Assembly: GCA_964473175.1 (NCBI GenBank)
Contig: CAYYNN010000003.1
Coordinates: forward strand, 7,057 to 71,056
DNA length: 64,000 nt
Source of the DNA: an uncultured Candidatus Saccharibacteria bacterium
GTDB lineage: Bacteria > Patescibacteriota > Minisyncoccia > Phycocordibacterales > UBA9973
Reading direction: 5' to 3'
The position numbers and the translations under genes are program-made. The notes beneath the pieces are model-generated. The model saw nothing but the letters and a program-made list of their open reading frames with translations, had not been told where the DNA came from and ran no database searches. Positions 10,908 to 62,357 of the stretch are shown in pieces; positions within the stretch are counted from its first letter, which is position 1, and every line of letters starts with the position of its first letter.

Positions 10908-10913
10908 TACTCT

Positions 10914-11429: not shown

Positions 11430-11487
11430 GATTTTTTGTTGTAGATGACCTTTGTTCAAATAAGGTTGATTACTATATACTAGCTCT

Positions 11488-14750: not shown

Positions 14751-17309
14751 ATGAACAAAAAAGAAGCATCAGCAAGAATAAAAATAAACAAACTCCTCGA
14801 GGAAGCAGGATGGCGTTTTGAGGCGGATAAAAATGGTCCGGCAAATATTCAACTTGAGCCAGGAGTTAAATATTCTGAACTTGGTGATGATTTTGAACAT
14901 GAGGTTCATGGTTTTATAGACTTTCTGCTTTTAGATAAAGACAATCGACCGCTACTCGTTGTTGAAGCGAAGAAAGAATCCATTGATCCACTTTCTGCAA
15001 AAGAACAGGCTAGAAACTATGCTCGAAATGTCGGTGCTCGCTTTGTCATTCTTTCAAACGGAAATATTCATTACTTCTGGGATACAAAGCATGGTAATCC
15101 AGATACCATCTCACGATTCCCAACACAAGAATCAATTACTCAGTATGAGAAATACACACCTAATCCTGCTGAGCTTGCGAACACACCAGTCGATGAAAAC
15201 TATGTCGTGGAGACTCAGATGCCCACCTTTGCAAAAGACCCTGCTTTCCAAGATGAATCTACTCGCTCTGAGTTTTTGAGAACCAATAACCTTAAGCAAC
15301 TTCGTCCTTATCAGGTCCAGGCTATTAAAGCACTTCAGGAATCAGCAAAAGAAGGTAAACAGAGATTTTTGTTTGAAATGGCAACAGGTACAGGAAAGAC
15401 TCTTATCTCGGCAGCAGTTATTAAACTATTCTTGAAATCTGGTAACGCACGCAGGGTCCTATTCCTCGTGGATAGAATCGAACTTGAAGATCAGGCTTTT
15501 AAGGCGTTTAGAAATTATCTTGGTAAAGACTTTGGTTGTGTGATTTACAAAGACAGTCGTGACTCATGGCAGAAAGCTCAAGTAGTAGTTTCAACAATTC
15601 AATCATTCCTCGCTGGTGATAAATATCGCAAAGAGTTTTCACCTACGGATTTCGAGCTGGTTATCTCAGATGAATCACATCGATCAATTGGCGGTAATAG
15701 TCGTGCGGTATTTGAATATTTTGTGGGCTATAAACTTGGCCTTACTGCTACTCCTAAAGATTACCTTAAGGGGTTTGATAACGACGGTGCCGACACTCAA
15801 AGAGAATTTGAGAGACGACAACTACTAGATACCTATAAAACGTTTGGATGTGAGGCAGGACAGCCAACATTCCGCTATGACCTTATAAAAGGTGTTCAAG
15901 ATAAATTCCTTATCAATCCTGTAGTGGTAGACGCTCGTACAGAAATTACAACTGAGCTTTTGTCAGACAAAGGCTATGCGGTCCACACCACAACCGATGA
16001 TGGTGAGTTGATTGATAAGGTTTTTAACGAACGACACTACGAAAGAAAGTTCTTCAATGAAGAGACCAATATTGCCATGAGCAAGGCATTTATCGATAAC
16101 GGCTTATTCGATCCTGTAGCGAAAGAGCTTGGTGTGAACTTGTTTGGTAAATCTATCGTGTTCTGCGTCTCTCAAAAACATGCGGCAAGAGTTACAAATA
16201 TCCTCAATAGGCTAGCATTTGAAAAGTGGCCAGACCTGTACAGTGAGTCTAACTTTGCAATGCAAATAACATCTCAAGTGTCCGATGCGCAGCAGATGAC
16301 GATTAACTTTGCCAACAACATGCTCGGTGGTAAAACAAACAAGCCAGAGGGATACGATTCAAGTAAAACTCGTGTTTGCGTGACTGTAGGAATGATGACA
16401 ACTGGATATGATTGTCAGGATATTTTGAACATTGCCCTTATGCGACCAGTGTTCAGTCCCTCAGACTTTGTCCAGATCAAGGGTCGTGGTACTCGAAAGC
16501 ATTTATTTGAATATCAAGATTATTCGACAAATGATAGAACTGCTTTTCCTAAAGACAAATTCAAGTTCTTCGACTTCTTTGCTACATGTGAATATTTTGA
16601 AAAAGAGTTCTCATACGATGAAAAGATAAAGCTACCTACTATTAAACAGCTTACCGGTCCCGAGACCTCGATTGATACCAATGCTACTCAAGGTGAGTTT
16701 GTAGATGAGAATGGTCAGAAGATATTCAAAGGACCTGTAGATATTGATACAGATGACAAAGTCGTATCAGTAGCTGAGACTCATGTCGGTGACCAAGGTA
16801 TGCGCATTGATCGTGAAGGTTTCAAGCGTGCCATAGAAGAAGACGTGCTTGGAAACCAGACTCTCAAGAATATGTGGGATAACGGCGACACTGAGGAAGC
16901 TGAGGATTACGTAAAGAAAAATATCCTTGATAAACCTAAGCATTTCCTCAATCTTGCTAATATTCGTAAATTGTTTAATGTTGATCGTCGCATCACCGTT
17001 AAGGAGTTTTTACAGGTAGCATTTGGACAAAAAACAGGCTTTGAAACAAAAGACGACTTACTAGAATCCGAATGGACCAAGTTTACAGAAGTGAATCCTG
17101 TGGACCAAGAACACTTTGATGCAGTTAAGAGTTTTTTCAAAGCTTACATTGTCGACAGTGAAGTGAGAGAGATTATTAAAAAGAATACTCCTGCTCAGTT
17201 TAACTTCTGTGCCACCTTCGGCTTTGATGAATATCAGAAACTAAATGGTTTCAAAACGGTCGTACCTCAATACATTAATGATTACGCTTATCAGCTAACC
17301 AACCTATAA
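14751..17309 (+). CDS. hsdR: Type I restriction enzyme R subunit-like protein (N-terminal PD-ExK nuclease plus SF2 helicase)
   Basis: HsdR_N-like D...VVEAKK motif; helicase motifs ATGTGKT, DESHRS, LTATP and QIKGRGTR. Confidence 0.8.
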   Translation: MNKKEASARIKINKLLEEAGWRFEADKNGPANIQLEPGVKYSELGDDFEHEVHGFIDFLLLDKDNRPLLVVEAKKESIDPLSAKEQARNYARNVGARFVILSNGNIHYFWDTKHGNPDTISRFPTQESITQYEKYTPNPAELANTPVDENYVVETQMPTFAKDPAFQDESTRSEFLRTNNLKQLRPYQVQAIKALQESAKEGKQRFLFEMATGTGKTLISAAVIKLFLKSGNARRVLFLVDRIELEDQAFKAFRNYLGKDFGCVIYKDSRDSWQKAQVVVSTIQSFLAGDKYRKEFSPTDFELVISDESHRSIGGNSRAVFEYFVGYKLGLTATPKDYLKGFDNDGADTQREFERRQLLDTYKTFGCEAGQPTFRYDLIKGVQDKFLINPVVVDARTEITTELLSDKGYAVHTTTDDGELIDKVFNERHYERKFFNEETNIAMSKAFIDNGLFDPVAKELGVNLFGKSIVFCVSQKHAARVTNILNRLAFEKWPDLYSESNFAMQITSQVSDAQQMTINFANNMLGGKTNKPEGYDSSKTRVCVTVGMMTTGYDCQDILNIALMRPVFSPSDFVQIKGRGTRKHLFEYQDYSTNDRTAFPKDKFKFFDFFATCEYFEKEFSYDEKIKLPTIKQLTGPETSIDTNATQGEFVDENGQKIFKGPVDIDTDDKVVSVAETHVGDQGMRIDREGFKRAIEEDVLGNQTLKNMWDNGDTEEAEDYVKKNILDKPKHFLNLANIRKLFNVDRRITVKEFLQVAFGQKTGFETKDDLLESEWTKFTEVNPVDQEHFDAVKSFFKAYIVDSEVREIIKKNTPAQFNFCATFGFDEYQKLNGFKTVVPQYINDYAYQLTNL

Positions 17310-17313
17310 AACT

Positions 17314-19815
17314 ATGAATGCAGAAACCAAAAGACATATAGATGCAGCCAGGCAGGTCCTCGTAGGCGTGGTCCCTAACCCAACTTCTCAAATAGATCAG
17401 ATCACCAATGCACTCATCTATAAATTTATGGATGATATGGACCAATCTGCAATCAAGTCTGGTGGCGAAGCATCATTTTTTACAGGTGACCTCGAGAGAT
17501 ATGCTTGGACCAGACTCATGGATACTCGTGTTGGAAACCAAGAGCGAATGAATCTCTATTCAGAGGCATTGGTAAAGTTTTCAGAATCAAAACAACTTCC
17601 GGAACTATTTAGAAATATTTTCAAATCAGCATATTTGCCATATCGGTCCCCAGATGTACTCGGGCTATTTCTAAAAGAGATAGATTATTTTAATTACTCA
17701 CATCCCGAAGAATTGGGAAATGCATATGAGTATTTACTTTCAATCATGTCATCACAAGGTGATGCTGGGCAGTTCCGCACACCGCGTCACATTATCGATT
17801 TTATAGTTGAGGCAGTAAATCCAACCAAAGATGACAAGGTCCTAGATCCTGCATGTGGTACTGGAGGCTTCTTGATTAGTGCCTACAAAAATATTCTCAA
17901 GCAACACGATGGTAAAGATGATCCAAAGAAAAAGGAAAAGCCTCTTACTCCCGACCAGCGCCGAACTTTAATGCAAAACTTTGAAGGGTATGACATCGAT
18001 CCTGGAATGGTCCGTATCGCACAGGTAAACATGTACCTACACCAATTCAAGAATCCAAAGATTGTACAGTATGACTCGCTTTCAATGGATGAAAGGTGGA
18101 ATGATAAATTTGATGTGATATTAGCAAATCCACCATTCATGTCTCCGAAGGGTGGTGTAAGTACTCATAATAAGTTTGGTATTCAATCGACTCGGTCCGA
18201 AGTGTTGTTTGTGGACTACATAATGAATCATCTTAGACCAAAAGGTCGCGCCGGCATCATTGTGCCAGAGGGAATAATCTTCCAGTCGGGCGCGGCTTAC
18301 CAGCAACTTCGGAAAAATCTTGTAAACGATGGTCTGTATGCTGTAGTAAGTTTGCCATCCGGAGTATTTCAACCTTACAGTAGTGTGAAAACTAGTATTT
18401 TATTTTTTGATAATGAAATCTCCAAGAAAGCTAGTGATGTTTTGTTTGTAAAAATTAATAATGATGGTTTTGAGCTTGGTGCTCAACGGAGACCATTAAA
18501 AACAAGTCATATCCCAGCTGCGATTGAGATATTGCGCCTTTATAAACAACGTGTTCTTGAAGGTGGAAAAATCACATTTCAAAGTGATGATGAGTTTGCG
18601 GTGCTAGTTCCGAAGGAAAAGATAGCAAAAGACAATGATTACAATCTTTCAGGTGATCGTTATCGCGCTACGTCTGATTTTACTAGTACTAAATATCCAA
18701 TGGTTAGGATAGATGAGGTTTGTGAGATATTAAGCGGTGGCGGTTTTCCAGTAGACGAACAAGGCGCTACAAATGGAGATATTCCATTCTTAAAGGTTAG
18801 TGACATGAACTTACCTGGTAATGAAATATGGATTAATCATGCAAATAACTTTGTTAATAAGGAAACACTGAAAAAACTTAAGGTTAAAACTGCGCCAAAA
18901 GGAACAATAATTTTTCCTAAGATTGGTGCAGCCATCGCTACAAATAAAAAGAGAATTTTATCTCGGGAATCTGCTTATGACAACAATGTTATGGGGTTAA
19001 TACCTAATGAAAAAATAAATCCATCCTTTCTTTTTTACTTGTTGAAACAACTTAATCTATCTGATTGGGCATCTGCATCAGCTTTACCATCAATAAGAAA
19101 ATCAGATGTTGAAAAATATTTGATTACTCTTCCGCCACTTGAAGTTCAAAAAGAAATTGTAGAGCAAATTGAGGTTAGACAAAAGGCTATCCAGGGCGCT
19201 CGGGAAGTTATCAAAAATCTAGAGAGAGAGAGACGATATTTTGGCCAGTCACTTAAAAAGTTAAATTATCAAATGACAGACATGGCTAATATATTTAATA
19301 AAGTAAGTGATCAGATTAATCCGCAACAATATGATTATGAGGTAGTTTATATTGGGCTTGAAAATATTGAATCTAACTCTGGTGTTCTAGTTGGGGATAT
19401 AAAATCTAATACAAAATCAATTAAAAGCATAAAGGGGGCTTTTAAAAAAGGAGATATCCTTTATGGAAAACTAAGACCGAATTTAAATAAGGTATGGTTT
19501 GCTAACTGTGACGGAATTTGCTCAACAGATATTTTAATTCTGCGTCCCACATCAAAAGAAATATCATCAAAAGTTTATTCTCTTATTTTGCAGAGCGATG
19601 AATTTAATCGAGAAGTATTGAATGGTATCAAAGGTGCTCAATTGCCCAGAGTAAGTTTTGATTATATATCTAAAATAAAGATCCCCGTTATTCCATATGA
19701 AGATCAGAACAAATTTATTTCAGAAATGGAAACAGAAGAAAAAGTAATCGAGTTAAACAAGAAAATTATTGAAATCCTGGAGAATAAGATTTCTGTAACC
19801 TTGAGTGAAATATAA
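17314..19815 (+). CDS. N6-adenine DNA methyltransferase (HsdM-like) fused to a single HsdS-type target recognition domain
   Basis: DPACGTGGFL motif I and NPPF motif IV; C-terminal roughly 380 aa resembles an HsdS recognition domain with a conserved helical spacer. Confidence 0.8.
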   Translation: MNAETKRHIDAARQVLVGVVPNPTSQIDQITNALIYKFMDDMDQSAIKSGGEASFFTGDLERYAWTRLMDTRVGNQERMNLYSEALVKFSESKQLPELFRNIFKSAYLPYRSPDVLGLFLKEIDYFNYSHPEELGNAYEYLLSIMSSQGDAGQFRTPRHIIDFIVEAVNPTKDDKVLDPACGTGGFLISAYKNILKQHDGKDDPKKKEKPLTPDQRRTLMQNFEGYDIDPGMVRIAQVNMYLHQFKNPKIVQYDSLSMDERWNDKFDVILANPPFMSPKGGVSTHNKFGIQSTRSEVLFVDYIMNHLRPKGRAGIIVPEGIIFQSGAAYQQLRKNLVNDGLYAVVSLPSGVFQPYSSVKTSILFFDNEISKKASDVLFVKINNDGFELGAQRRPLKTSHIPAAIEILRLYKQRVLEGGKITFQSDDEFAVLVPKEKIAKDNDYNLSGDRYRATSDFTSTKYPMVRIDEVCEILSGGGFPVDEQGATNGDIPFLKVSDMNLPGNEIWINHANNFVNKETLKKLKVKTAPKGTIIFPKIGAAIATNKKRILSRESAYDNNVMGLIPNEKINPSFLFYLLKQLNLSDWASASALPSIRKSDVEKYLITLPPLEVQKEIVEQIEVRQKAIQGAREVIKNLERERRYFGQSLKKLNYQMTDMANIFNKVSDQINPQQYDYEVVYIGLENIESNSGVLVGDIKSNTKSIKSIKGAFKKGDILYGKLRPNLNKVWFANCDGICSTDILILRPTSKEISSKVYSLILQSDEFNREVLNGIKGAQLPRVSFDYISKIKIPVIPYEDQNKFISEMETEEKVIELNKKIIEILENKISVTLSEI

Positions 19816-20909: not shown

Positions 20910-21899
20910 ATGGACGACAAAATAAATCTAAACGAGGAATGGCAGAGAGCTCTCAGTCAGAAGTACAAATCGCCGAAACGAGTGGCGAAGTTCGAAGAAT
21001 TCAAAAAGACCCACCTCGAACAAACCAGGAGTGAAATAAATCCGGACACACTTCGCAGTAAGAAAAAGCCCAATAGGTTTGTTGTCGATAACGAGTATGT
21101 CAAAGGTTATTACCTAGCGAAATTTCCACCAGTCTGTTCTCAGGTTCTTTTCACGTTACTTGTCCATTGTAACCTCAACAGGCAGGATGCCTTTCCGAGC
21201 ATTGTCACCATTCAAGAACTCTCCGGATGTACCAACACTCGAAGTGTCATTAGTGCTCTGAGGATTCTTGAGGCCTACGGGATACTCAACATTCGTCGGT
21301 CCAAGAGAGGGATAAAAGCAGTGAATGTCTATTTCTTTCAGTCGGTCCGACATTGGAGACCACTCTCAAAGAGCATGAAAAAGATTAAGCTCACTGATCC
21401 ATTACCGCAATGGCAAAATTCCGTCCAGAGCACTGGCAGAAAACAGACCTATCGTACTGGCCCTACTGCCAATCTAACTAACCTAAGAGAAAACTATAAT
21501 AATAAAATACAAAATATTGGAGATATTTTAAGGGAAAGATTCAAAATGCCAGAAGACCCGTCTAAGGTTGCTATTCCCACACCTTCTAGCAATACTGTCG
21601 TCGATGACAAAAAGGCAGAAGACATGGGACCTGATACGCTTGTTAGAACAGGTGAAAAACAAGAGTATCGTACTGGCACTAATGCCACTACGATTGATAC
21701 CCGTAATAACGGGAAATTAACGGGAACCGAAAGTCAGAGACATGGCATGTCATCAGCCGTTTATAAACGGGAAATAACGGTCGAAAAACCTCCCGAGGAT
21801 CCATTTATAAATGGAGAAAAATGGACTAAGGAAGATGGAGGTATCGGCCTGATGAATATCAACAATGAAGACATCGGACCAGGAAGCGCAACATTATAA
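20910..21899 (+). CDS. Winged-helix DNA-binding protein, plasmid/phage replication-initiator-like, with C-terminal KQxYRTG repeats
   Basis: wHTH-like segment FPSIVTIQELSGCTNTRSVISALRILEAYGIL; repeats KQTYRTGPTA and KQEYRTGTNA. Confidence 0.45.
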   Translation: MDDKINLNEEWQRALSQKYKSPKRVAKFEEFKKTHLEQTRSEINPDTLRSKKKPNRFVVDNEYVKGYYLAKFPPVCSQVLFTLLVHCNLNRQDAFPSIVTIQELSGCTNTRSVISALRILEAYGILNIRRSKRGIKAVNVYFFQSVRHWRPLSKSMKKIKLTDPLPQWQNSVQSTGRKQTYRTGPTANLTNLRENYNNKIQNIGDILRERFKMPEDPSKVAIPTPSSNTVVDDKKAEDMGPDTLVRTGEKQEYRTGTNATTIDTRNNGKLTGTESQRHGMSSAVYKREITVEKPPEDPFINGEKWTKEDGGIGLMNINNEDIGPGSATL

Positions 21900-21904
21900 A
21901 AACT

Positions 21905-23569
21905 ATGAACAACACAAAACCAACAATTAAATACTTCCTCTACGCACGTAAATCAAGCGAGGCAGAAGACCGTCAGGCAGCGTCCATCGATGCCCAGAAA
22001 GACGAGCTTATGAAGATTGCAAAGGATCAAGGCTTACACATCCTAGATATCCTTGAAGAATCACAATCAGCCAAAAAGCCAGGCAGGAAAGTATTCAACT
22101 CAATGCTTGAGAGAATCTATAAAGGAGAAGCCAATGGCATCCTGTGTTGGAAACTAGACCGCCTAGCACGTAATCCTGTCGATGGTGGCCAGATAAGTTG
22201 GATGTTGCAGCAGAGTGCCGTATCTCAAATTGTTACCTTCGGCCGAACTTACTATCCCACTGACAACGTTCTCATGATGCAGGTCGAACTTGGTATGGCC
22301 AATCAGTTTATCCGAGACCTATCAGTGAACGTAAAGCGAGGTCTACAAAAGAAGGTAAGAGATGGATGGATGCCAAGTGGCGCACCGATCGGATACCTCA
22401 ATACTCCAAATAAACAAAAGGGTTATAAGACTTTGGAAAAAGATCCTGAAAGATTTCCACTGGTCCGAAGACTCTTTGACCTTGCACTTACCGGCAATTA
22501 TTCAATGGCCCAGATTTGGAATATCTCAAGAAAGCAGTTGAATCTCCGAACGGTCCCACGTAGGAACATTGGCGGCGAACATCTTTCACGGTCAGCAATT
22601 TATGCAGTCCTTGGTAATCCATTTTATTACGGCTGGTTTGAGTTTCCGCTCCACAGTGGCAATTGGAATAAGGGAGCGCATGAGCCAATGGTAACCAAAG
22701 AGGAATTTGATCAAGTACAAAAGGTTATGGGTAGAACCAACCAGCCACGTCCACGACATGAGGAGAGAATGTTCGCTTTTACCGGCCTTATGAAATGTGC
22801 CACTTGTGGTTGCAGTATTACAGCTCAAGCCAAAGTAAAGCGTTGCAAGAATGGTAATGTTCACCATTATGTTTATTACAACTGCACCAAAAAGAGATAT
22901 GACGCTGGCTGCACTGAAAAGCATGTCGAAGTAAAATTGCTACACCTCCAGATCGGGGCAATACTTAAGGATATAAAAATTTCAGAAGAATATCGTGACT
23001 GGGCGGTCCGCCATGTCCATGAGGTTCGCAAGAATGAAGCCGAGAGTGACTCAATTGCAATAAGGACCAAACACAAGGAATGTGAAGAAGTGACGCAGCA
23101 GCTGCAGTCTTTGACTTTGAACTTCACTGCACCCTCCAACAAGGCTCGAAACGTTATTGGCGAACAGGAATACCAGTCTCTTAAGTCTGAGCTACTCAGA
23201 AAGAAGGGTCTTCTTGAAGACGAATTAAAGATCAAGAATAAGGCGGTCGAACAATGGGCAGAACTTTCAGAACAAACCTTTGACTTTGCTTGCTATGCAC
23301 ACCTTTGGTACGAGAATGGCGATGAAAAGACCAAAAGAGCGATACTCGCATGCCTTGGCTCGAACCTCACCATTTCAGACAAAAAGATCCAGCTTTCTTA
23401 CAGTTCTTTCTTTTTGAGCCTCATAAAAGCACGAGAAGCTATTCAACAGGAAATAGAGCACGCTCGAACCTACAAAAAGCCAGGCCACATACGACAAAAG
23501 TGGCATCATGTGCCACTTTTGTCAGTCAGGCTCCCCCGGCTGGATTCGAACCAACGACCCATCGCTTAA
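21905..23569 (+). CDS. Large serine recombinase (resolvase domain, recombinase domain and zinc ribbon)
   Basis: YARKSSE catalytic serine motif; CATCGC ... CTKK zinc ribbon; coiled-coil C-terminus. The last 13 codons are antisense to tRNA-Asn. Confidence 0.85.
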   Translation: MNNTKPTIKYFLYARKSSEAEDRQAASIDAQKDELMKIAKDQGLHILDILEESQSAKKPGRKVFNSMLERIYKGEANGILCWKLDRLARNPVDGGQISWMLQQSAVSQIVTFGRTYYPTDNVLMMQVELGMANQFIRDLSVNVKRGLQKKVRDGWMPSGAPIGYLNTPNKQKGYKTLEKDPERFPLVRRLFDLALTGNYSMAQIWNISRKQLNLRTVPRRNIGGEHLSRSAIYAVLGNPFYYGWFEFPLHSGNWNKGAHEPMVTKEEFDQVQKVMGRTNQPRPRHEERMFAFTGLMKCATCGCSITAQAKVKRCKNGNVHHYVYYNCTKKRYDAGCTEKHVEVKLLHLQIGAILKDIKISEEYRDWAVRHVHEVRKNEAESDSIAIRTKHKECEEVTQQLQSLTLNFTAPSNKARNVIGEQEYQSLKSELLRKKGLLEDELKIKNKAVEQWAELSEQTFDFACYAHLWYENGDEKTKRAILACLGSNLTISDKKIQLSYSSFFLSLIKAREAIQQEIEHARTYKKPGHIRQKWHHVPLLSVRLPRLDSNQRPIA

Positions 23570-23602
23570 CAGGCGATTGCTCTACCGCTGAGCTACAAGG
23601 GA
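23531..23602 (-). tRNA. tRNA-Asn (GUU)
   Basis: Minus-strand cloverleaf: acceptor TCCCTTG/CGGGGGA, anticodon loop CTGTTAA, T-loop GGTTCGAATCC. Confidence 0.8.
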
Positions 23603-35020: not shown

Positions 35021-36334
35021 ATGAAATCACCATTTCAAACAATTCTCGTTATCGTCTTTGCAGTTGTTTTTGCTGGCGCAATATTGGTGTTCTCTGGGCT
35101 TATATCTTTTGGTTCTAAAAAGGCAGATACAGCACCACAAGGGACTGTTGTTGTGTGGGGTATCGCACCCAATACGTTAATGCAGACATATTTCGGGATT
35201 ATTAATAATAATGGTAGCAGTGGGTACACTATTTCATACCAAGAACACGACCCTTCAGTCATCCAACAAGATCTTATTGTAGCGCTTGGAAATGGTAATC
35301 CTCCTGATATGGTGCTTTATTCTTCAGAACTCCTCGCGCAATTCAAAGATAAGCTATATCCGGTTCCCTATGCAGCATATCCTGAGCGAACATTTCGTGA
35401 TACCACTATTGATGGAGCACAAATATTCCTTGGAACTGACGGTATTGTTGGTATGCCGCTTGTTGTCGACCCACTTGTCGTTTATTACAACAAAGATATT
35501 TTGGCAAAAGAAAACTTTGTTGTTTCTCCTCAAACGTGGAGTAATCTCCAGCAGACAGTTCCACTTCTCACAAAGCGTGATGAGCGAGGAGTGATACAGC
35601 AATCAACTATTGCGCTCGGGTCAGCACAAAACGTCGATCATATGCGTGACATTCTATCTGCGCTTTTTTTACAAACAGGCAACAGTATTGTTGTTGGTGG
35701 AGGTGCAAGTACGGGAAAAGGAACTGTTGTCCTGGCCTCGACACCCGCGGGAAGTCTTTCTGCTCCAACAGCGCAAGCCTTGGACTTTTATACGAGTTTT
35801 GCGAACCCTACAAATACAAACTATTCATGGAACAGTTCACTGCCATCGAGCCTCTCGCAGTTTATTGCTGGAAAGAGTGCTTTTTATATCGGCAGAGCAA
35901 GTGAACTGTTTACTATTCAATCACAAAACCCCAACCTCAATTTTGATGTATCGCAACTTTTCCAGACAGGCTCCAATACAAGACCTGCAACATTCGGATC
36001 ATTTCTTGCTATCGGTATTATGAAAAACGCACCAAACTTCACTGCTGCATATGCAGCAGCGGGGTTGATGAGTGGAGCAAATGGTATTGATGCGCTTTCA
36101 AAAACACTTTCTCTCCCTCCGGCTCGTCGAGATTTGTTGCTTGTGCAACAAGCTAACCCATACGTATCAGTATTTTTTAATGCAGCACTTACTGCATTTG
36201 CATGGCCTGATCCAAACCCACTTGGAACTGAAAATGTATTTAAAACGATGGTGACTGCGGTGACAAGTGGCAAAAGCGATGCACAAACAGCAGTCTTTGA
36301 TGCGAGTCGAGATTTACAATCTTTGTTAAAATAA
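35021..36334 (+). CDS. Membrane-anchored extracellular solute-binding-protein-like protein
   Basis: N-terminal TM segment; overall resemblance to family-1 SBPs; no ABC permease nearby. Confidence 0.4.
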   Translation: MKSPFQTILVIVFAVVFAGAILVFSGLISFGSKKADTAPQGTVVVWGIAPNTLMQTYFGIINNNGSSGYTISYQEHDPSVIQQDLIVALGNGNPPDMVLYSSELLAQFKDKLYPVPYAAYPERTFRDTTIDGAQIFLGTDGIVGMPLVVDPLVVYYNKDILAKENFVVSPQTWSNLQQTVPLLTKRDERGVIQQSTIALGSAQNVDHMRDILSALFLQTGNSIVVGGGASTGKGTVVLASTPAGSLSAPTAQALDFYTSFANPTNTNYSWNSSLPSSLSQFIAGKSAFYIGRASELFTIQSQNPNLNFDVSQLFQTGSNTRPATFGSFLAIGIMKNAPNFTAAYAAAGLMSGANGIDALSKTLSLPPARRDLLLVQQANPYVSVFFNAALTAFAWPDPNPLGTENVFKTMVTAVTSGKSDAQTAVFDASRDLQSLLK

Positions 36335-36335
36335 T

Positions 36336-37400
36336 ATGAAAAAATTCCTCCAAGTAGTTCTGGTTGTTGTATCGATACTAGTACCTCCAAAGATAACTAG
36401 TGCTGCTGCGAATATAACACTTACTGCCAAAATAACTGACGCACACTCTATTACTGTCACCGTTAAAAATAATGGTCTAGCGGGGCAGGATACTAATGGA
36501 GGATATTATAGTGTTTTTAACGGAGTAGCATATGCGGTAAATCCGACAACTCATGCACCAGAAAATTCAATAACATTTGGCCCTATTACTGGTGGCCAAA
36601 GTAAGGATGTAAAGATTTCTAACCTTAATCCAAATGTAGTCTATAGTTTTGAAGTGCAAGAAGGTGGAGGGTTTTATGCTAGTGGACAAGTACTCAAAAA
36701 GATAAACATGACAACTCTCGGAGGGGTCTCTACCTGTCCTGCACCAAAAATAATAGTTAATGGACAATGTGTCACCGCACCTCCGGTAACAGCAACACCA
36801 GGAACGCCTGTGACAAATAACTCTACGGTCACCACCAACAACAATGGCGTAACGACAACTGTTACCACTGTGATAACTGGTACTGATCAATGTACCGACA
36901 AAATCGACAACCAAATAGGGGACGGCAAAGATTATGGACACGGTGCAGGGATGGGAGACCTCAAGGCAGATCGGTATGGAGTCGATAACCCTGATGGTAC
37001 ACTGAAATATGAACCCGATCCAAGCTGTTTCACTTCCTCTGCAATTGTTGAAGAAGCAGACGATCTTGCTGTTGATGCAAACGGGAAGCCGTTGAGTATT
37101 ATTCCTTGCACGAACAAATGTACCTTTGCAGATGCATTTCGATTGATCAACAACTTCATGACCTTTTTCATCAAAATAATTTTGATCCCGATTTTCATTA
37201 TTATTATTATGTACGCTGGGTACAAATACTTGATGGCCGGAGCAAATGCTGGAGCAAAAGCAGATATCAAGAAAATGCTCGGTAACATAGTCAAAGGAAT
37301 TATTATTATTCTATGCGCATGGCTTATTGTGCATACTATTATGACCACACTGCTTAATGATGATTTTAAGAGTAGTGCAGTAGAATTCCTTGGTAACTAA
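36336..37400 (+). CDS. Secreted protein P1: signal peptide, FN3/Ig-like domain, C-terminal two-helix TrbC/VirB2-like module
   Basis: MKKFLQVV signal; C-terminus FIIIIMYAGYKYLMAGANAGAKADIKKMLGNIVKGIIIILCAWLIVHTI. Confidence 0.55.
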   Translation: MKKFLQVVLVVVSILVPPKITSAAANITLTAKITDAHSITVTVKNNGLAGQDTNGGYYSVFNGVAYAVNPTTHAPENSITFGPITGGQSKDVKISNLNPNVVYSFEVQEGGGFYASGQVLKKINMTTLGGVSTCPAPKIIVNGQCVTAPPVTATPGTPVTNNSTVTTNNNGVTTTVTTVITGTDQCTDKIDNQIGDGKDYGHGAGMGDLKADRYGVDNPDGTLKYEPDPSCFTSSAIVEEADDLAVDANGKPLSIIPCTNKCTFADAFRLINNFMTFFIKIILIPIFIIIIMYAGYKYLMAGANAGAKADIKKMLGNIVKGIIIILCAWLIVHTIMTTLLNDDFKSSAVEFLGN

Positions 37401-37416
37401 GCTATACTATATACAC

Positions 37417-38556
37417 ATGAATAAAATCCTTGTTTCTCTCGCGCTCATAGTCCTCGGTATTCCTCATAGTTCATTTGCTGCTACTACAACGTTTGTTTGT
37501 ACATCGATCACACCACAAAGTACGAGCGTCACGATGAAGTTGGTAGGAAGTAACACCTTACACTGGGCTAAAATCCAAGAACAAGGCAATATATCCAACT
37601 CAACACAGGCACCTCAGACGACCACCTATCAGCAAAATCCAACAGGAGTGACCAACACGTACGACTTTTTAACTCCTGGTGCGTCCTATAAAACATTTGA
37701 ATATGACCAGGCGGGAATATATATTGGTGAAATTCCTAAATGTTCATTTACGACACTCAATGCCAACGGTACAACACCTCCTCCGAATCCTGGATCTACT
37801 ACTCCTACACAGACAACAAATGCATACCGAGTAGTAACTTCACTGCAAGGAGCTTCACAAGCAACGATAAAGGTTCAGTCGCTCTTAGCCTTTGATACGG
37901 CGGGTAAAATAGAGGTCAAGAAATCATCTGATATAAACATCATTGCTTCGTGTGGTAGTACTGCAACGCCAGTACAGTTCCCGAGTGGGCAACAAGCAAA
38001 TCCATGCATTGTTCCTAACTTGGTACCAGGGAATTATCTCGCAAGGGTAACAGGTACCAGTGCAAGCGGCACCTCGTATGGCGGTATAACAGAATTTACT
38101 GTTCCGCCTCCGACGACGACTAGCACAAGCCCAACAACACCAACTGGTCCCATTTCAGGGACACCTCAGACGGGGACTGTTACGACCGGTACACCTCAAA
38201 CAGGAACAGGAGGAACATTTACGCCTCAAACAAGTACAAGTACAGCCTCAGGATCAGCATCTGGTGCTGGAGGGGGCATACTCCTGGATGTGAAGTTACA
38301 AAACCCGTTGAAGGTCAACGATATTCAGAGTGCGATAAAGTTTTTCGTCGATACATTGATCAAAATAGCAATACCGTTCATTGTCGTGTTCTTTATCTGG
38401 GCAGGACTTAAGTTTATCTTGGCCCAAGGCAAGCCAGACAAAATTACCGAAGCGAAGAAAATGTTTTGGTACACGATCATAGGTACGCTTCTAATACTTG
38501 GAGCTTGGACTATTACAAATGCGATTATTGGTACGGTTAACTCTATAACAAATTAA
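37417..38556 (+). CDS. Secreted protein P2: signal peptide, Thr/Pro-rich linkers, C-terminal TrbC/VirB2-like module
   Basis: Start trimmed to MNKILVSLALIVLG; C-terminus FIWAGLKFILAQGKPDKITEAKKMFWYTIIGTLLILGAWTI. Confidence 0.55.
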   Translation: MNKILVSLALIVLGIPHSSFAATTTFVCTSITPQSTSVTMKLVGSNTLHWAKIQEQGNISNSTQAPQTTTYQQNPTGVTNTYDFLTPGASYKTFEYDQAGIYIGEIPKCSFTTLNANGTTPPPNPGSTTPTQTTNAYRVVTSLQGASQATIKVQSLLAFDTAGKIEVKKSSDINIIASCGSTATPVQFPSGQQANPCIVPNLVPGNYLARVTGTSASGTSYGGITEFTVPPPTTTSTSPTTPTGPISGTPQTGTVTTGTPQTGTGGTFTPQTSTSTASGSASGAGGGILLDVKLQNPLKVNDIQSAIKFFVDTLIKIAIPFIVVFFIWAGLKFILAQGKPDKITEAKKMFWYTIIGTLLILGAWTITNAIIGTVNSITN

Positions 38557-38557
38557 T

Positions 38558-39457
38558 ATGAAAAAATTCCTTGTTGCAGTATTACTCATTATTTTTACAC
38601 TCACTACAGGCAGTGTGGTATTTGCGATAGGAGATACGATAGATAGTGATACAACAGTAGATACTGGCACGACGGCACCTACCACGCAACCGCAACCAAC
38701 GAGAAATAGCTTTTCTTGTTCTGCAAAAAACGCAGCGATGAATACAGCATCTATCACGGTACAGCCAAGTAACGGCGATATGCAGTCATATAGTGTTAGT
38801 TTGTATACCGCTCAAGGGACACAGTATGCCTCTGCCACAACCAACCAGCTACCACCGAACCCTCCGGTAACTGCAGCAGGTGCTACGTATACGTACAGCG
38901 GGCTGTCTTCTGGCACGACATATTATGCGGTTATCGTTGGTACCAACCTTCCTCCACAACAAATCCCGGGATGTTCACTGACGACAACAACAGGTGCCAA
39001 TAGCGCTCCAGGTACGTTGCCAGCCGCAACAACAGGAACATATACATTCGGGACACTTGGCAGTGTTCCGACAACTCCTATCAATGCAACAATCCCAGTA
39101 GCTTCGACGATAGTTGCAACACCACAGACCGGCTCAACGCAACTAGCGCAATGTAGTGCAATCAAGTTTATTTCACTACTTGATATTTTGATATGGCTCA
39201 AATGTATTATCGTCATTGCTATCATTCCACTCATATTTGCGGCGGCATTTATGTTCTTCTTGTGGGGTGTTATGAAGTTCATCATGGCAAATGATTCAGC
39301 TAAAAAAGAAGAAGGGAAGAAGTTTATTATTGCAGGGATGATCGGACTTTTTGTGATGACGAGTATTTGGGGGATAGTCAGTATCGTGAGCCGCACCTTG
39401 GGTACAGGTTCAGTTGTCCCTATATTGCAAACGAGTTCTCTACAACGCACCCCATAG
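38558..39457 (+). CDS. Secreted protein P3: signal peptide, Thr-rich region, C-terminal TrbC/VirB2-like module
   Basis: MKKFLVAVLLI signal; C-terminus FLWGVMKFIMANDSAKKEEGKKFIIAGMIGLFVMTSIWGI. Confidence 0.55.
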   Translation: MKKFLVAVLLIIFTLTTGSVVFAIGDTIDSDTTVDTGTTAPTTQPQPTRNSFSCSAKNAAMNTASITVQPSNGDMQSYSVSLYTAQGTQYASATTNQLPPNPPVTAAGATYTYSGLSSGTTYYAVIVGTNLPPQQIPGCSLTTTTGANSAPGTLPAATTGTYTFGTLGSVPTTPINATIPVASTIVATPQTGSTQLAQCSAIKFISLLDILIWLKCIIVIAIIPLIFAAAFMFFLWGVMKFIMANDSAKKEEGKKFIIAGMIGLFVMTSIWGIVSIVSRTLGTGSVVPILQTSSLQRTP

Positions 39458-39548
39458 GGGTCGATTGTAGATGTGATATACTAAACCCATATCTGGCGTA
39501 GCAATTACGTAAAGATTAATAGAGTAATTAATAAGAATTTTATACATT

Positions 39549-39986
39549 ATGAAAAAAATAGCTCTCAAGTCTACGATTGCTTCTATTGGAATGGCATTTG
39601 CTGTACCAGCACTCGCACTCGCACAAGTAACATGGCCGACCTCAACAACTGGTACGTCTGATACTAGTTATGTAGATAACTGGATTTCAAAAGCGACAGG
39701 ATGGCTTTCACAGTCCATCACAATCATCATGATATTGATGACATTGTGGTTCCTTATCAATGTATTTCGATACATTGCAGAAAAGGATCCAGGTAAGCTC
39801 GCAGAAAAGCGTAAAGTGATGCTCAACGGCCTTATCGGACTTTTCATCGCAGTATCAGTATGGGGTATCATCAAGATCGCTGGAAATGTGTTTGGAACAA
39901 ATAATTCACAGGCTCCAGCTCTCGTTTGTCCTCCTGGAACTGAGTACAATAACGTAACCAAGCTCTGCGCAATCCCGCAGCCGTAG
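39549..39986 (+). CDS. Secreted protein P4 (145 aa) with a TrbC/VirB2-like two-helix module
   Basis: Signal peptide; LWFLINVFRYIAEKDPGKLAEKRKVMLNGLIGLFIAVSVWGI. Confidence 0.5.
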   Translation: MKKIALKSTIASIGMAFAVPALALAQVTWPTSTTGTSDTSYVDNWISKATGWLSQSITIIMILMTLWFLINVFRYIAEKDPGKLAEKRKVMLNGLIGLFIAVSVWGIIKIAGNVFGTNNSQAPALVCPPGTEYNNVTKLCAIPQP

Positions 39987-39989
39987 TCT

Positions 39990-40328
39990 ATGCTCTGGAT
40001 CGCCTATGCTGACTCTGTTGACACCTTGCTCAACAAGCTGAACAAGAATATCATCAACCCTGCTATTGAATTTGCATTCATTATCGCGCTGGTGGTGTTC
40101 TTGTGGGGTATCATGGAGTACATTCGTGGTGCCAACAGTGAAGAGAAACGCAAGGACGGCAAACAACATATGCTATGGGGGACGATAGGGTTTGTGATTA
40201 TGTTGGGAGTATTTGGTATCATCAACCTCCTCATTGGAACGTTTGGTATCAAAGGTGCAACGATCAACAACGATCAACAAACCTTCCAAGCTCCGCCCAT
40301 ACAGGAATTGAAATTCCCACAACAATAA
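39990..40328 (+). CDS. Minimal 112-aa two-helix protein P5, a VirB2/TrbC-like pilin candidate
   Basis: FLWGIMEYIRGANSEEKRKDGKQHMLWGTIGFVIMLGVFGI is the same module without extra domains. Confidence 0.5.
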   Translation: MLWIAYADSVDTLLNKLNKNIINPAIEFAFIIALVVFLWGIMEYIRGANSEEKRKDGKQHMLWGTIGFVIMLGVFGIINLLIGTFGIKGATINNDQQTFQAPPIQELKFPQQ

Positions 40329-40378: not shown

Positions 40379-41248
40379 CTATTCTTTTTTGTTAGTAAAT
40401 GTAATCATGTTGCCTGCATCGTCATTGAGTAAGGTTGCCGTATACATTTCTTTGCGCAGTTTGTTGTCAGGAGAGACTAATGAATCATAGCTCTCGCGCA
40501 CTGCACCGGTTTTGGTTCGCTGGAATATACCTATCCAATGGATGCTTTCGTCAAAATTTTTGAAATAAAACCTTGCCGTTCCGCATTTCTTGGGTATGAA
40601 GTACTTTGGCTCTCCATCGTTAAACCAGACATAGCCTACTCCAGATTGGAATGCATAGGTACTATCGACCATCAAGCCTTCTCCTGGTGTAGTTACTTGC
40701 GACATCACGGGTTGTGTAGTCGTCGTGGTAACCACTGTCGTTTGTTGGGGCAGTATTCGTTGAATTCTTATTTCTGTGTATGCATCATCTATTTTCTGTA
40801 ACTGATCCCGGTTGTGAAGCCAGGGTTTTACGAATTCGACTGATACAAACCAAAAGATAAGTACAACAACCATCCATCTCAACCAAACAGGGAACCAGTC
40901 CATGGTACCAATAGCTAAAGTTTTAACTTTTGGTATCTTTGTTTTTTTGAGATACCTAAAGAGTATCGCCAGTAAAATAATTACAATCAACCACCCCATG
41001 ACTGAACTATATTCTCCACCTAATGAGGTGAAAAAATAGTTAAGTATAAATGTGATAATAACCATTCCACCAATAATAAAGAATAAAAGATTATCCAGTA
41101 TTTTTGATGAAAAAGTATTCGGTACATTTGGAGTGTTTGTGTTGTTCTTTTTTAAGAAAGCATCTATTTCAGCTTTCATTATCTTTATTTCCGTTTTGAT
41201 AACTTTCCAGTATTTGGAAAGTGCCGCCATCACTTTGCTTGTTGCCAT
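40379..41248 (-). CDS. Polytopic membrane hypothetical protein
   Basis: Three hydrophobic helices; convergent with the P1-P5 operon. Confidence 0.45.
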   Translation of the reverse strand: MATSKVMAALSKYWKVIKTEIKIMKAEIDAFLKKNNTNTPNVPNTFSSKILDNLLFFIIGGMVIITFILNYFFTSLGGEYSSVMGWLIVIILLAILFRYLKKTKIPKVKTLAIGTMDWFPVWLRWMVVVLIFWFVSVEFVKPWLHNRDQLQKIDDAYTEIRIQRILPQQTTVVTTTTTQPVMSQVTTPGEGLMVDSTYAFQSGVGYVWFNDGEPKYFIPKKCGTARFYFKNFDESIHWIGIFQRTKTGAVRESYDSLVSPDNKLRKEMYTATLLNDDAGNMITFTNKKE

Positions 41249-41250
41249 TA

Positions 41251-42519
41251 TTACTTCGTTTTTGGATGAACAATTTGTTTTGCAATGATGTTCGCTTCAA
41301 GTATTTCATCAAGCTTATCGCTACCTCCAACATTTTCATCTCCGTGAAGAATTAACGTCGAAAGGTTTGTAATTTTCGCCAATGAATCATATTTTGCCTG
41401 AAGTGTCGCATCGGGAACTTTCTTTAGTTCCATTGCTTTATCGAGTATTTGTTTGTTTGCATCAAGAGTAATTTCCGTTTTGGAACTAAATTCCTTAACG
41501 TCATTCTCTCTCTCGATTTCTTTTTTTGATTTAAACTGGTCAACCTCATTTGTCTTTAAACTTTTATCCAATGCAGTTTGAATTAGATTAGTTGCTGTAC
41601 CAGTTTTATCAATAGCATAGGCTTCGCCGTCAGCGATTTTCATCTTCTTGCGACGCTCGCCATCACCCTGTTTTTCTGTAGTATCTGCCAAGATTTTAGC
41701 TTCTTCAAACGCGATCGTCGCCTTTTTGATTTTTTCCTGTGCCTCAAGAAGATCTTGAGATTCAGGATCAAGAACGAACTCAGTAAATTCTATGTCTTCC
41801 AGAATAACGCCAGTGAGGTAGTTATCTTTGTTGACAGTTCGATAGAAATTGCCCGCATCAGGTAGTTCTTCAAAACTTACTCCATATACTGCTGTTAAAT
41901 AATCAGCAGTACGAGTCCATTTTTGGAATTTGTCTAACACAGACTTTTCAGGATCGCTTTTTGCTTGGTACGTTGTTGAAATCGCGGCTGAATAATTGTA
42001 TACGATATACTTTAAGTAACCGAAAGCAGTTCCACGATATCCATCTCTTGTTAAAAAAGGGATAGCGATGTCCTCACGTTCGCGAGCGAACAATGAAGAT
42101 TTTTTTATTTCTTTCCATTCGCCTAATGCAATAGTATCAGGATCATTTGTAGTTTTTGTAGCAATACCTGTTTTATCTTTTGGGATAAGTGGTTGCCACC
42201 TGACCTCACCATTTGTTGTGCGTATTTCCTTAAGTGTTCTAAACTTTTTGTATCTATAGTCGAATAACCCTATACTGTAAGGCCAAATTAAAAAGTAGAA
42301 AGATTTTGAACTATCTATTTTTATCTTTGGATCTACTCCAGGTACATCAAATATTTCTTTAGGAATAGGTATATCGGGGATGCCTACCCCGACAATGGTA
42401 ATGTGTGTTTTGAAACGTTTGATTACTGAGAGTTGACCTTCTTCTGGTTGATAGAAATGAATAGTAGAAAGCCATAAGGCTATTACTATCGCAATAAGGA
42501 AGATAATGAATATACTCAT
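41251..42519 (-). CDS. Membrane-anchored SPFH/band-7-like protein
   Basis: N-terminal TM segment; SPFH-like core followed by a long E/K/A-rich coiled coil. Confidence 0.4.
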   Translation of the reverse strand: MSIFIIFLIAIVIALWLSTIHFYQPEEGQLSVIKRFKTHITIVGVGIPDIPIPKEIFDVPGVDPKIKIDSSKSFYFLIWPYSIGLFDYRYKKFRTLKEIRTTNGEVRWQPLIPKDKTGIATKTTNDPDTIALGEWKEIKKSSLFAREREDIAIPFLTRDGYRGTAFGYLKYIVYNYSAAISTTYQAKSDPEKSVLDKFQKWTRTADYLTAVYGVSFEELPDAGNFYRTVNKDNYLTGVILEDIEFTEFVLDPESQDLLEAQEKIKKATIAFEEAKILADTTEKQGDGERRKKMKIADGEAYAIDKTGTATNLIQTALDKSLKTNEVDQFKSKKEIERENDVKEFSSKTEITLDANKQILDKAMELKKVPDATLQAKYDSLAKITNLSTLILHGDENVGGSDKLDEILEANIIAKQIVHPKTK

Positions 42520-42644: not shown

Positions 42645-43244
42645 TTAGAACGTCGTTGTAAACGTAATCGTTGTTGGATTGTTTGGGTTGTAAGCATATC
42701 CACCACTTCTACACAGGTTCCATCCTGAGTACCATGGCGTCAATTGCCATGCTGCTTCATTTGGATCACTTGTCCACTCTGCGTGAACAGAAATCAATCT
42801 ACATGAAATGGGTGTGCCGTACTCATCGGTTCTTGTTTCCAAGATCCATACACTCCCACCATATGCATTGTGATCATAGTTGTACACCATGGACGTTGAT
42901 ACGCTACCGTCAGGGGAAACGCTTCCTGGTCTGCAAAGCGTAACAGTACTGATAGCGGTTCCAGGATTTCCTGTTGTCCAGACATGATATGTACCAGAAA
43001 TGTTGTCTCTGGTGATATACGGCCGAACGACTGCAGTGACATACTTTGTCTCCATAACCACACCTCTATCATTTCTGAAATCAATGTAGCCCCCTCGCAT
43101 GTCCGCATCGATCTGGGCTATTACCGGGGTAATGACCGTTGGGCTTTGCGTTGGAGGAATGATTTGTCCCTGCACGTCTTTTGCACAACTTGTTGTACTG
43201 AAAACGATTGCTGCTGCGATGATGGTAAAGAACATATTTTTCAT
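42645..43244 (-). CDS. Putative lipoprotein or secreted hypothetical protein
   Basis: Signal peptide ending STTSC (lipobox-like). Confidence 0.5.
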   Translation of the reverse strand: MKNMFFTIIAAAIVFSTTSCAKDVQGQIIPPTQSPTVITPVIAQIDADMRGGYIDFRNDRGVVMETKYVTAVVRPYITRDNISGTYHVWTTGNPGTAISTVTLCRPGSVSPDGSVSTSMVYNYDHNAYGGSVWILETRTDEYGTPISCRLISVHAEWTSDPNEAAWQLTPWYSGWNLCRSGGYAYNPNNPTTITFTTTF

Positions 43245-43427
43245 GATGTATTTTTTTAAAGTTTAAATTGATTGGTTGAGGCGTCCAGCAGGGCAGTACG
43301 GGATATCTCAACCAATCAACGACAACTTCATGAATCTGAGTATATTATAGCAGGTATACATACTTTTGTCAAGCACTAGTGTATACAGCAAAAAAGCCCT
43401 AGAAATAGGACTTTTTTGTGTACGATG

Positions 43428-43500
43428 TGCCCCCAGAGGGATTCGAACCCACGACCGTCTCCTTAAGAGGGAGCTGCTCTACCAACTGAGCTATAGAGGC
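43428..43500 (-). tRNA. tRNA-Lys (CUU)
   Basis: Acceptor GCCTCTA/TGGGGGC, anticodon loop CTCTTAA, T-loop GGTTCGAATCC; one mismatch each in the anticodon and T stems. Confidence 0.7.
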
Positions 43501-43520
43501 ATACCTATGTACTTGTACTG

Positions 43521-43602
43521 TGCTGGAGAAGGGACTTGAACCCTTAAGCCTTGCGGCACTAGTTCCTAAGACTAGCGCGTATACCAATTCCGCCACTCCA
43601 GC
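43521..43602 (-). tRNA. tRNA-Leu (UAG)
   Basis: Long variable arm; anticodon stem CTAGT/ACTAG; loop CTTAGGA. Confidence 0.8.
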
Positions 43603-43653
43603 GTAAGCGCCTGGTGCCCCCAATAATACCGTATTTCGCACACTCTTTCAAGG

Positions 43654-43736
43654 TGCCCAGGGTGGGACTCGAACCCACACGGTATTACTACCAGAGGATT
43701 TTAAGTCCTCGCTGTCTACCATTCCATCACCTGGGC
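43654..43736 (-). tRNA. tRNA-Leu (UAA)
   Basis: Long variable arm; anticodon stem GAGGA/TCCTC; loop CTTAAAA; acceptor GCCCAGG/CCTGGGC. Confidence 0.8.
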
Positions 43737-43741
43737 AGGGA

Positions 43742-43812
43742 GACCCGGGCGAGAATCGAACTCGCGTATAGTTCTTTTGCAGAGAACCGCCTTACCACTT
43801 GGCCACCAGGTC
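43742..43812 (-). tRNA. tRNA-Cys (GCA)
   Basis: Acceptor GACCTGG/CCGGGTC; loop CTGCAAA; discriminator U. Confidence 0.8.
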
Positions 43813-62356: not shown

Positions 62357-62357
62357 T

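Follow-up and report, generated by a model that had tools for sequence, protein, structure and literature searches.

Five consecutive genes within a 64-kb window of contig CAYYNN010000003.1 (the window being the whole stretch of 64,000 nucleotides analysed), from an uncultured bacterium of the Patescibacteria, are best explained, judging from their sequences, as a chromosomal core-genome operon of pilin-like proteins of the VirB2 superfamily (Pfam family PF18895, T4SS_pilin; T4SS, type IV secretion system). The proteins, termed P1 to P5, share a C-terminal module of two hydrophobic helices, and their genes follow directly on a gene for a solute-binding protein (SBP). The array and its borders are composed as follows:

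35021–36334, plus strand: membrane-anchored orphan SBP of the sugar type (SBP_bac_8/SBP_bac_1; PF13416, E = 1.6e-18; PF01547, E = 7.8e-12)
36336–37400, plus strand: P1, open reading frame (ORF) of 354 residues
37417–38556, plus strand: P2, 379 residues from the ATG; an alternative TTG start at 37390 gives 388 residues
38558–39457, plus strand: P3, ORF of 299 residues
39549–39986, plus strand: P4, ORF of 145 residues
39990–40328, plus strand: P5, ORF of 112 residues
40335–40360, both strands: bidirectional hairpin terminator directly past the P5 stop codon, with an 11-bp stem containing 7 GC pairs

The genes carry the signs of an operon, with gaps of 16, 1, 91 and 3 nt between successive members (only one of them longer than 1–16 nt) and a terminator right after P5. 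The P1 ATG begins 1 nt past the stop codon of the SBP gene, which is probably co-transcribed with the array. The hairpin has a clear T-run on the minus strand and a more T-poor tail on the plus strand, and is predicted to form the end of the array transcript in common with the convergent downstream gene. A promoter scan gave no signal above chance within the array, and tRNA and Rfam scans returned no RNA features there.

The C-terminal modules of P1–P5 align with four invariant columns and a mean column identity of 40%. Hydropathy profiles of P1–P4 show a signal-like N-terminal segment followed by two C-terminal transmembrane (TM) segments, and that of P5 shows the two TM segments alone. In Smith–Waterman comparisons against composition-preserving shuffles, 8 of the 10 module pairs exceeded all 300 shuffles, with z values of 4.9–19.9, reaching 18–20 for the P3 module against those of P4 and P5. 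The P1–P4 pair gave a z of 3.7, its score being reached by 2 of 300 shuffles, and the P1–P5 pair a z of 1.7, which is not significant, so that P1 and P5 are connected solely via the other array members. A hidden Markov model (HMM) built from the modules matches exactly five ORFs in the window, those of P1–P5. The original prediction, made from the DNA letters, had described five consecutive same-strand genes with a common C-terminal module; the ORFs are present at 36336–40328 on the plus strand, and the paralogy, which could have been lost on proper alignment, is upheld by the alignment and the shuffle tests.

The profile searches proposed with that prediction place all five proteins in one family. 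Against PF18895, with a gathering cut-off of 26.6 bits, P2 (37.9 bits, E = 1.9e-9), P5 (33.9 bits, E = 3.4e-8) and P4 (28.2 bits, E = 2e-6) score over the cut-off, and P1 (24.4 bits, E = 3.1e-5) and P3 (23.0 bits, E = 8.4e-5) fall just under it. The layout of the family, two hydrophobic helices joined by a short polar loop within approximately 70 residues, is seen both in hydropathy and in the hairpins of the AlphaFold2 (AF2) models of P1 and P5. The TrbC/VirB2 family PF04956 has a gathering cut-off of 27.9 bits, and its matches to P2 (19.4 bits, E = 1.2e-3) and P1 (15.0 bits, E = 0.03) are sub-threshold; P3–P5 gave no match in this search. The best NCBIfam match of the module is NF045849, an equivalog of Mbov_0395 family pilin-like conjugal transfer proteins with a cut-off of 40 bits; the scores of P5 (39.2 bits), P4 (28.3 bits) and P2 (17.8 bits) all lie below it, which indicates a related family rather than an equivalog.

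These assignments become firmer in a wider scan of 138 array proteins from 28 related species, in which PF18895 and PF04956 matches were counted at E ≤ 0.01. PF18895 matches 137 of the 138, PF04956 matches 29 (best E = 1.9e-9), and NF045849, the pilin-like family of Mycoplasma integrative and conjugative elements (ICEs), matches 120 (best E = 3e-12). A few of the proteins also match TraQ of IncI1 and the conjugation membrane protein pLS20_p028. The module is thus tied by sequence to small two-TM proteins of conjugative T4SSs, monoderm ones included. Membership of P1–P5 in PF18895 appears secure on profile scores, and the link to the TrbC/VirB2 superfamily appears real, yet the window proteins are not members by its curated threshold. 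The likeness to VirB2/TrbC originally proposed therefore stands at the level of the family, through PF18895, PF04956 and NF045849, and not in the profile–profile and fold comparisons, which are considered below.

The proposed distinction from type IV pilins also holds. On inspection, the N-termini of P1–P5 are devoid of the prepilin motif G↓F/M-x-x-x-E; Glu5 is missing, and the signal segments have the usual n-h-c regions of Sec substrates, ending in AXA-like sites. A Pfam scan of the five proteins found no pilin or N_methyl match, and TadE in P5 reaches just 11.7 bits (E = 0.29).

The module profile matches 36,867 protein clusters of a representative library at E ≤ 1e-3. Several library chains from outside the window carry modules in tandem: P0105 has a signal peptide and 3 modules, P0126 has 6, and P0201 (1147 residues) has 11, with a Cys...Cys linker ahead of each module and a C-terminal β-rich domain. 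They look like genuine in-frame fusions, and an ‘array’ can thus be one polypeptide.

The five proteins differ in what precedes the module. Their parts, all encoded on the plus strand, are:

P1 N-terminus: signal helix in the AF2 model
P1 residues 27–126 (nt 36414–36713): FN3-like β-sandwich, with a predicted local distance difference test (pLDDT) score >90 in the AF2 model
P1 residues 155–181: Thr-rich linker, disordered in the AF2 model
P1 residues 186–262 (nt 36891–37121): conserved Cys/Asp-rich domain of the AF2 model, with no Pfam match
P1 residues 264–339 (nt 37125–37352): T4SS_pilin module, with AF2 helices 264–300 and 305–339
P2: signal peptide, two β-rich domains, Thr/Pro/Gly-rich stalk, and module at residues 301–370 (nt 38317–38526)
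P3: signal peptide, weak FN3-like region, Thr/Pro-rich stalk, and module at residues 218–277 (nt 39209–39388)
P4: signal peptide (ALA↓Q), module at residues 43–109 (nt 39675–39875), and C-terminal tail with a CPPG...C pair
P5: bare module at residues 8–85 (nt 40011–40244), with no signal peptide

The AF2 model of P1, built from 43 homologues, has an overall pLDDT of 80. Foldseek matched its N-terminal sandwich with FN3 domains, the RsgI4 sensor domain and a carbohydrate-binding module (E = 3e-5 to 1e-3), and P1 orthologues carry a K319L-like PKD domain (E = 2e-18) or an fn3 domain in place of the FN3-like N-terminal domain. A Pfam match of P1 to 7TM_GPCR_Srsx is spurious and stems from its hydrophobic segments. 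The membrane-proximal Cys/Asp-rich domain of P1 is kept in 26 related loci, including those that lack the FN3 head, and is near-invariant at C186, D188, D191, N192, D208, K210, A211, D212, E226-P-D-P229, C231, C258 and C262; its pattern QCxDGxDNQxGDG... resembles, in sequence, calcium- or metal-binding repeat motifs.

The P2 module is 85% identical to its orthologue in the related locus L002, and the P2 ectodomains have homologues in the closest relatives only. The fn3 match of P3 is weak (E = 6.2e-3). P4, with 145 residues and a predicted ALA↓Q cleavage site, is of VirB2 size. Its C-terminal tail (39900–39986), past the second helix, contains the pattern CPPG-x(8–11)-C, which recurs in loci L002, L004 and L006 at the fourth array position only and probably forms a disulfide loop on the outer face. 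For P1–P3 as a group, homologues of the ectodomains occur in a few closest relatives only, sometimes at another array position, and in relatives with gyrA 80–85% identical the N-terminal domains of the three proteins are absent. P1–P3 would accordingly be described as ‘modular’ pilin-like proteins, with exchangeable Ig-like heads predicted on Thr/Pro-rich stalks. This architecture bears out most of what had been read from the letters: Sec signal peptides in four proteins (a signal-like segment is present in P1–P4), an Ig/FN3-like domain in P1, Thr/Pro/Gly-rich stalks in P2 and P3 (such linkers are visible in all of P1–P3), and a P5 of 112 residues reduced to the module.

The predicted Sec-type signal peptides of P1–P4 imply an N-out, loop-in, C-out topology, as in VirB2 propilins. 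The loop between the helices is short and Lys-rich, and among 403 modules from related loci it is net positive in 59% and net negative in 14%. Signal peptide, Lys-rich loop and the disulfide-capable C-terminal tail of P4 all fit this predicted VirB2-like arrangement.

The nearest homologues and the syntenic loci come from metagenome-assembled genomes (MAGs) of Paceibacterota, Nomurabacteria, Kaiserbacteria and Zambryskibacteria, which places the host in the Patescibacteria, or candidate phyla radiation (CPR), in agreement with the reduced-genome origin first suggested. P5 is the most conserved array member, with 104 close homologues, mostly 60–80% identical, in Paceibacterota and Nomurabacteria MAGs. 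Many MAG records with a block of the Paceibacteria type bear the title ‘uncultured Candidatus Saccharibacteria bacterium’, and the relatives closest to them are labelled Paceibacterota, Nomurabacteria or Kaiserbacteria; these ‘Saccharibacteria’ submitter labels are probably wrong or generic.

A survey of CPR genomes, another of the checks proposed at the outset, was carried out with one genome per GTDB species and yielded 80 loci, to which four fetched earlier were added; the array recurs in all 84. Every locus has a single same-strand array, of four genes in 25 loci, five in 34 and six in 14. Among the 75 loci with enough sequence, the array is immediately preceded by an SBP homologue in 73, and in the remaining two this homologue is found 1–1.4 kb away on the same side. 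For gyrA, an upstream position holds in 63 of 63. The block gyrA–methyltransferase–SBP–[4–6 pilin genes] is found in essentially all of the approximately 80 Paceibacteria species loci, and six annotated related contigs extend it, with gyrA, a small methyltransferase, SBP_bac_8, the T4SS_pilin genes (five or six), a few genes of unknown function on the minus strand, rbfA, infB and ClpB. This conserved housekeeping synteny identifies the array as a core chromosomal operon of Paceibacteria and rules out an origin as a mobile element. The nearest solved relatives of the SBP are sugar-binding proteins (4r9f, MBP1, E = 1.1e-6; 1eu8), and Pfam scans of the 64-kb window found no ABC permease or ATPase to accompany it.

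The order of the paralogues is as constant as their company. Among 403 modules from the 84 loci, with position counted from the array end, 395 find a closer counterpart in another species than among the paralogues of their own array, and for 320 the best cross-species match occupies the same array position; at the last position, orthology extends to 84 of 85 cases. The window modules have best identities to each other of 28–35% and are 74–85% identical to their orthologues (the best within-array identity has a median of 40% over 402 modules), and P4 and P5 are 49–76% identical across species whose gyrA is 80–85% identical. This cross-species closeness, together with the kept positions, marks the five copies as old, distinct and individually retained. 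Sequence variation is confined to the ectodomains. Non-redundant subunits (a shaft and minor subunits) would be expected to show such a pattern, and copies amplified recently for antigenic variation would not; the positional orthology essentially rules out recent tandem duplication as the source of the paralogues.

The reading that we favour, with confidence somewhat above even, is that P1–P5 are VirB2-type hairpins, inserted through Sec and assembled by a T4SS encoded elsewhere in the genome. The hairpins would be extracted from the membrane and polymerised by a monoderm-type machinery (VirB4, VirB3 and VirB6), giving a surface conduit or a short pilus. Its shaft would be built from P4 and P5, both short and conserved, and P1–P3 would be minor subunits of adhesive function, with outer domains that change fast and would determine host specificity. 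At this structure, the co-transcribed SBP may capture a glycan or nutrient that derives from the host. Both the formation of a filament by P1–P5 and its part in host attachment are what we infer from the data above.

Several results weigh against this reading. Not one window protein reaches the PF04956 cut-off. An hhalign comparison of the P5-family alignment with Agrobacterium-type VirB2 gave a probability of 4.8% over 13 columns; the VirB2 alignment was narrow (29 sequences, 55–85% identity, seeded with a VirB2 sequence 98% identical to the database entry), which makes this a weak negative. A sequence-profile search of the PDB with the P5 family found no pilin, returning chance matches to FliL and Sec61-gamma at E > 0.1. 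The AF2 model of P5 is a helical hairpin (residues 2–46 and 51–85, pLDDT 77) for which Foldseek returned nothing from the PDB at E ≤ 0.001, and fold matches are non-specific, with chemoreceptor and ESCRT hairpins scoring equally or higher, because helical hairpins hold too little fold information; the predicted fold is compatible with a pilin without proving one. The 200–300-residue ectodomains of P1–P3 are unlike classical extractable pilins, the lack of a signal peptide in P5 is unlike VirB2, and the library chains of 3–11 fused modules are odd for an extractable pilin. No homologue of virB4, virB3, virB6, virB8 or virB11 was found among the window ORFs scanned by Pfam (the array neighbours and large ORFs), in approximately 4.5 kb past the right end of the window, or in the ±10-kb flanks of the six annotated related loci; no relaxase was found in the same places. 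With no T4SS core genes nearby, the T4SS link is drawn from homology and from studies published for another class. To our knowledge, no pilus of PF18895-type array proteins has ever been seen.

An explanation that takes these points at face value is a membrane complex independent of any T4SS, in which the module is an oligomerising anchor and the five proteins form, together with the SBP, a fixed surface or uptake complex that is never a pilus; variants of it would be a substitute for the missing ABC permease or an attachment plaque. We regard this as unlikely, though as a contender of some weight. It would account for the near-universal SBP linkage (directly upstream in 73 of 75 loci) in a window with no ABC permease or ATPase, for the absence of T4SS core genes from the window and the flanks of the six related loci, and for the fixed, stoichiometric-looking set of four to six ordered paralogues, which resembles the subunits of a complex; natural chains of 3, 6 or 11 fused modules look like polytopic membrane proteins, and the fold evidence for a pilin is non-specific. 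It sits poorly with the homology of the module to conjugative proteins (TrbC/VirB2, the Mycoplasma ICE pilin-like family, TraQ and pLS20_p028) and with the homologous arrays of Saccharibacteria, which lie within a T4SS locus and are essential along with the T4SS (PMC10633639). The missing neighbours also lose force where T4SS genes are often dispersed, a pilin gene being near virB4 in just 1135 of 1948 assemblies (PMC12102498).

The two remaining alternatives concern the copies themselves. Tandem amplification for antigenic or host-range variation would make them interchangeable variants of one major pilin, as proposed for the VirB2 paralogues of Bartonella and Anaplasma and suggested for Patescibacteria (PMC12102498). 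The low identity of the paralogues, at 28–35% for the best matches within the array, is near the published average of 25%, and the outer domains of P1–P3, which differ strongly among close relatives and shift between array positions, would suit such a role. The explanation is nevertheless quite improbable, given the 395 of 403 modules that are nearer to an orthologue than to a paralogue of their own array, the position kept by 320 of 403 modules and by 84 of 85 at the last position, and the 49–76% identity of P5 and P4 across species. A chance likeness of unrelated stop-transfer anchors that share a hydrophobic composition could draw on the z of 1.7 for the P1–P5 pair and on spurious matches of hydrophobic segments such as 7TM_GPCR_Srsx in P1; with 8 of 10 pairs beating all composition-preserving shuffles, all five proteins matching one Pfam family, and the same array present in 84 related loci of approximately 80 species, its probability is close to nil.

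A bolder form of the favoured T4SS-assembled reading, which we hold to be rather doubtful, treats SBP–P1–P5 as one heteromeric organelle belonging to the core of Paceibacteria: a VirB2-type filament or conduit of five fixed subunits, coupled to the SBP and uncoupled from the virB4 locus. Two of the subunits, both short, would make up the shaft, and the other three would be ‘modular pilins’ bearing FN3/PKD adhesin heads that can be swapped.

Arrays of 2–11 VirB2-like pilin genes are known in Patescibacteria (PMC12102498), where Quinonero-Coronel et al. (2025) searched 3,035 genomes with PF04956 and PF18895 (PMC12102498). Under their definition, at least two pilin genes in tandem or with one non-pilin gene between them, the five contiguous genes described here form an array, and the best within-array module identities of 28–35% agree with the high divergence of the published copies, which are 25% identical on average and 54% at most (PMC12102498). 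The window array shares with these systems, the ‘Sec secreted array’ of TM7x included, the tandem same-strand PF18895/PF04956 genes in 2–11 copies of low identity, the chromosomal location in monoderm ultra-small hosts and the lack of a relaxase nearby. It differs in being located not in or near a virB4 locus but in the gyrA–methyltransferase–SBP block conserved across Paceibacteria, and in belonging to Paceibacteria, the published arrays being mainly from Microgenomatia and Saccharimonadia (PMC12102498). Wang et al. (2023) described a pilin series in the SEML1_0006–0019 locus of Ca. Southlakia epibionticum that is located within the T4SS locus and is required for growth as an epibiont (PMC10633639), and a 2025 review of T4SS nomenclature counts six essential VirB2-like pilins in this organism and ranks a possible monoderm T4SS pilus among the most exciting open points (PMC12857230). 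The array is a further example of the published kind, with some new details, and no new category. The searched texts of the published array papers make no mention of the gyrA–methyltransferase–SBP–array block, the orphan-SBP linkage, the FN3/PKD architecture or the signal peptides, and no description of fixed positional orthology was met in their available parts.

With the TrbC/VirB2/TraA pilins (T-pilus, RP4, F, R388 TrwL and pKM101 TraM), the array proteins share the two hydrophobic helices and short basic loop, a predicted Sec signal peptide (P1–P4), a VirB2-like size (P4), a predicted N-out/C-out topology and, within the wider array family, sub-threshold to significant PF04956 matches. They differ in the large N-terminal ectodomains of P1–P3, the missing signal peptide of P5, the absence of adjacent virB genes and the monoderm host. 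Pilins of the TrbC/VirB2 group mature from small propilins to approximately 70–100 residues and polymerise, usually along with phospholipid, into an extracellular pilus. The Mbov_0395/MMCAP2_0565 family of Mycoplasma ICEs (NF045849), pLS20_p028 and IncI1 TraQ are likewise small two-TM proteins of monoderm or wall-less, MPF-FATA-type systems (MPF, mating-pair formation), the class from which the patescibacterial T4SS is reported to derive; NF045849-type proteins are single-copy and lie inside the transfer regions of mobile ICEs or plasmids, whereas the window has five ordered chromosomal paralogues with ectodomains and a housekeeping neighbourhood. Whether array pilins were co-opted from other T4SS classes is left open in the published survey (PMC12102498). 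Modular type IV pilins such as PilB of Streptococcus sanguinis (PMC8179133) follow the same design, in which a polymerisation module carries an adhesive domain in a minor subunit that accompanies short major subunits. They belong to an unrelated filament superfamily, and the window proteins have neither a class III prepilin signal nor Glu5; the extra domain of P1–P3 is N-terminal instead of C-terminal, and the likeness is one of analogy only.

The rest of the window contributes the following features:

10494–11889, plus strand: three consecutive small genes, for a cytochrome b5-like protein, a DUF2231 protein and a metal-related DUF305 protein
14751–17309 and 17314–19815: type I restriction–modification R subunit and fused M+S subunit, respectively
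20910–21899: helix-turn-helix protein
21905–23569: large serine recombinase
23529–23602, minus strand: tRNA-Asn
40379–41248, 41251–42519 and 42645–43244, minus strand: D1, D2 and D3, membrane or lipoprotein-like, convergent on the array
43427–43812, minus strand: cluster of four tRNAs (Lys-CTT, Leu-TAG, Leu-TAA and Cys-GCA) between the variable D1–D3 island and rbfA/infB
60368–62356, plus strand: VirD4/TrwB-like coupling-protein homologue, a P-loop ATPase of 662 residues (PF10412, 40.5 bits; PF02534, 34.6 bits; PF12696, 24.2 bits)

The VirD4/TrwB-like ATPase is the only other T4SS-related gene found in the window. Its Pfam match starts at residue 28, which leaves no room for an N-terminal TM domain, and a functional tie to the array is unproven. 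Orphan homologues of type IV coupling proteins are ubiquitous in Patescibacteria and not essential in S. epibionticum (PMC12102498), and virB4 of Paceibacteria is reported to lie usually near dnaA/dnaN. Directly 3′ of the ATPase gene, with overlapping stop and start codons, is a gene for a protein with lamin-tail (LTD) and PKD domains, the pair spanning 60368–63692 on the plus strand; in one Logan contig (L092) a DUF5667 protein and an extracytoplasmic function (ECF)-type sigma factor are encoded downstream of the LTD/PKD gene.

Genes of similar size occupy the D1–D3 site in relatives, with scant or patchy sequence conservation: D2 is 55% identical in locus L019 and 25–38% in five other loci, and D1 and D3 are almost without detectable homologues. 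D1–D3 would thus form a fast-evolving island beside the conserved array, and their candidacy as components of the system was dropped as unsupported, given their poor conservation among relatives. Two perfect sigma-70 consensus promoters lie by these genes, at 43372–43344 and 42596–42568. Farther away, the 3′ end of the serine recombinase gene overlaps tRNA-Asn, and the segment 14751–23602, with its restriction–modification and recombinase genes, is probably an integrated island. The cytochrome b5-like/DUF2231/DUF305 trio is unexpected in a genome so reduced.

Patescibacteria account for a large part of bacterial diversity, and most of them seem to live attached to other cells; Paceibacteria are their largest class. 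In the only genetic study so far, epibiotic growth required both the T4SS and its pilin array (PMC10633639). The Paceibacteria array adds a deeply conserved core operon in which the order of the subunits is fixed, the adhesin-type heads are exchangeable and a sugar-binding protein is always linked, and it raises testable questions as to which subunits form the shaft, which heads bind the host and which ligand the SBP recognises. A monoderm origin of the array pilins is plausible in view of their strong likeness to the pilin-like family of Mycoplasma ICEs. Should the five subunits and the SBP indeed form one heteromeric organelle, it would be a device for host attachment and nutrient capture in obligate symbionts, and VirB2-like pilins, given their ties to the Mycoplasma ICE and pLS20 families, would be native to monoderm MPF-FATA-type systems, not borrowed from diderms.

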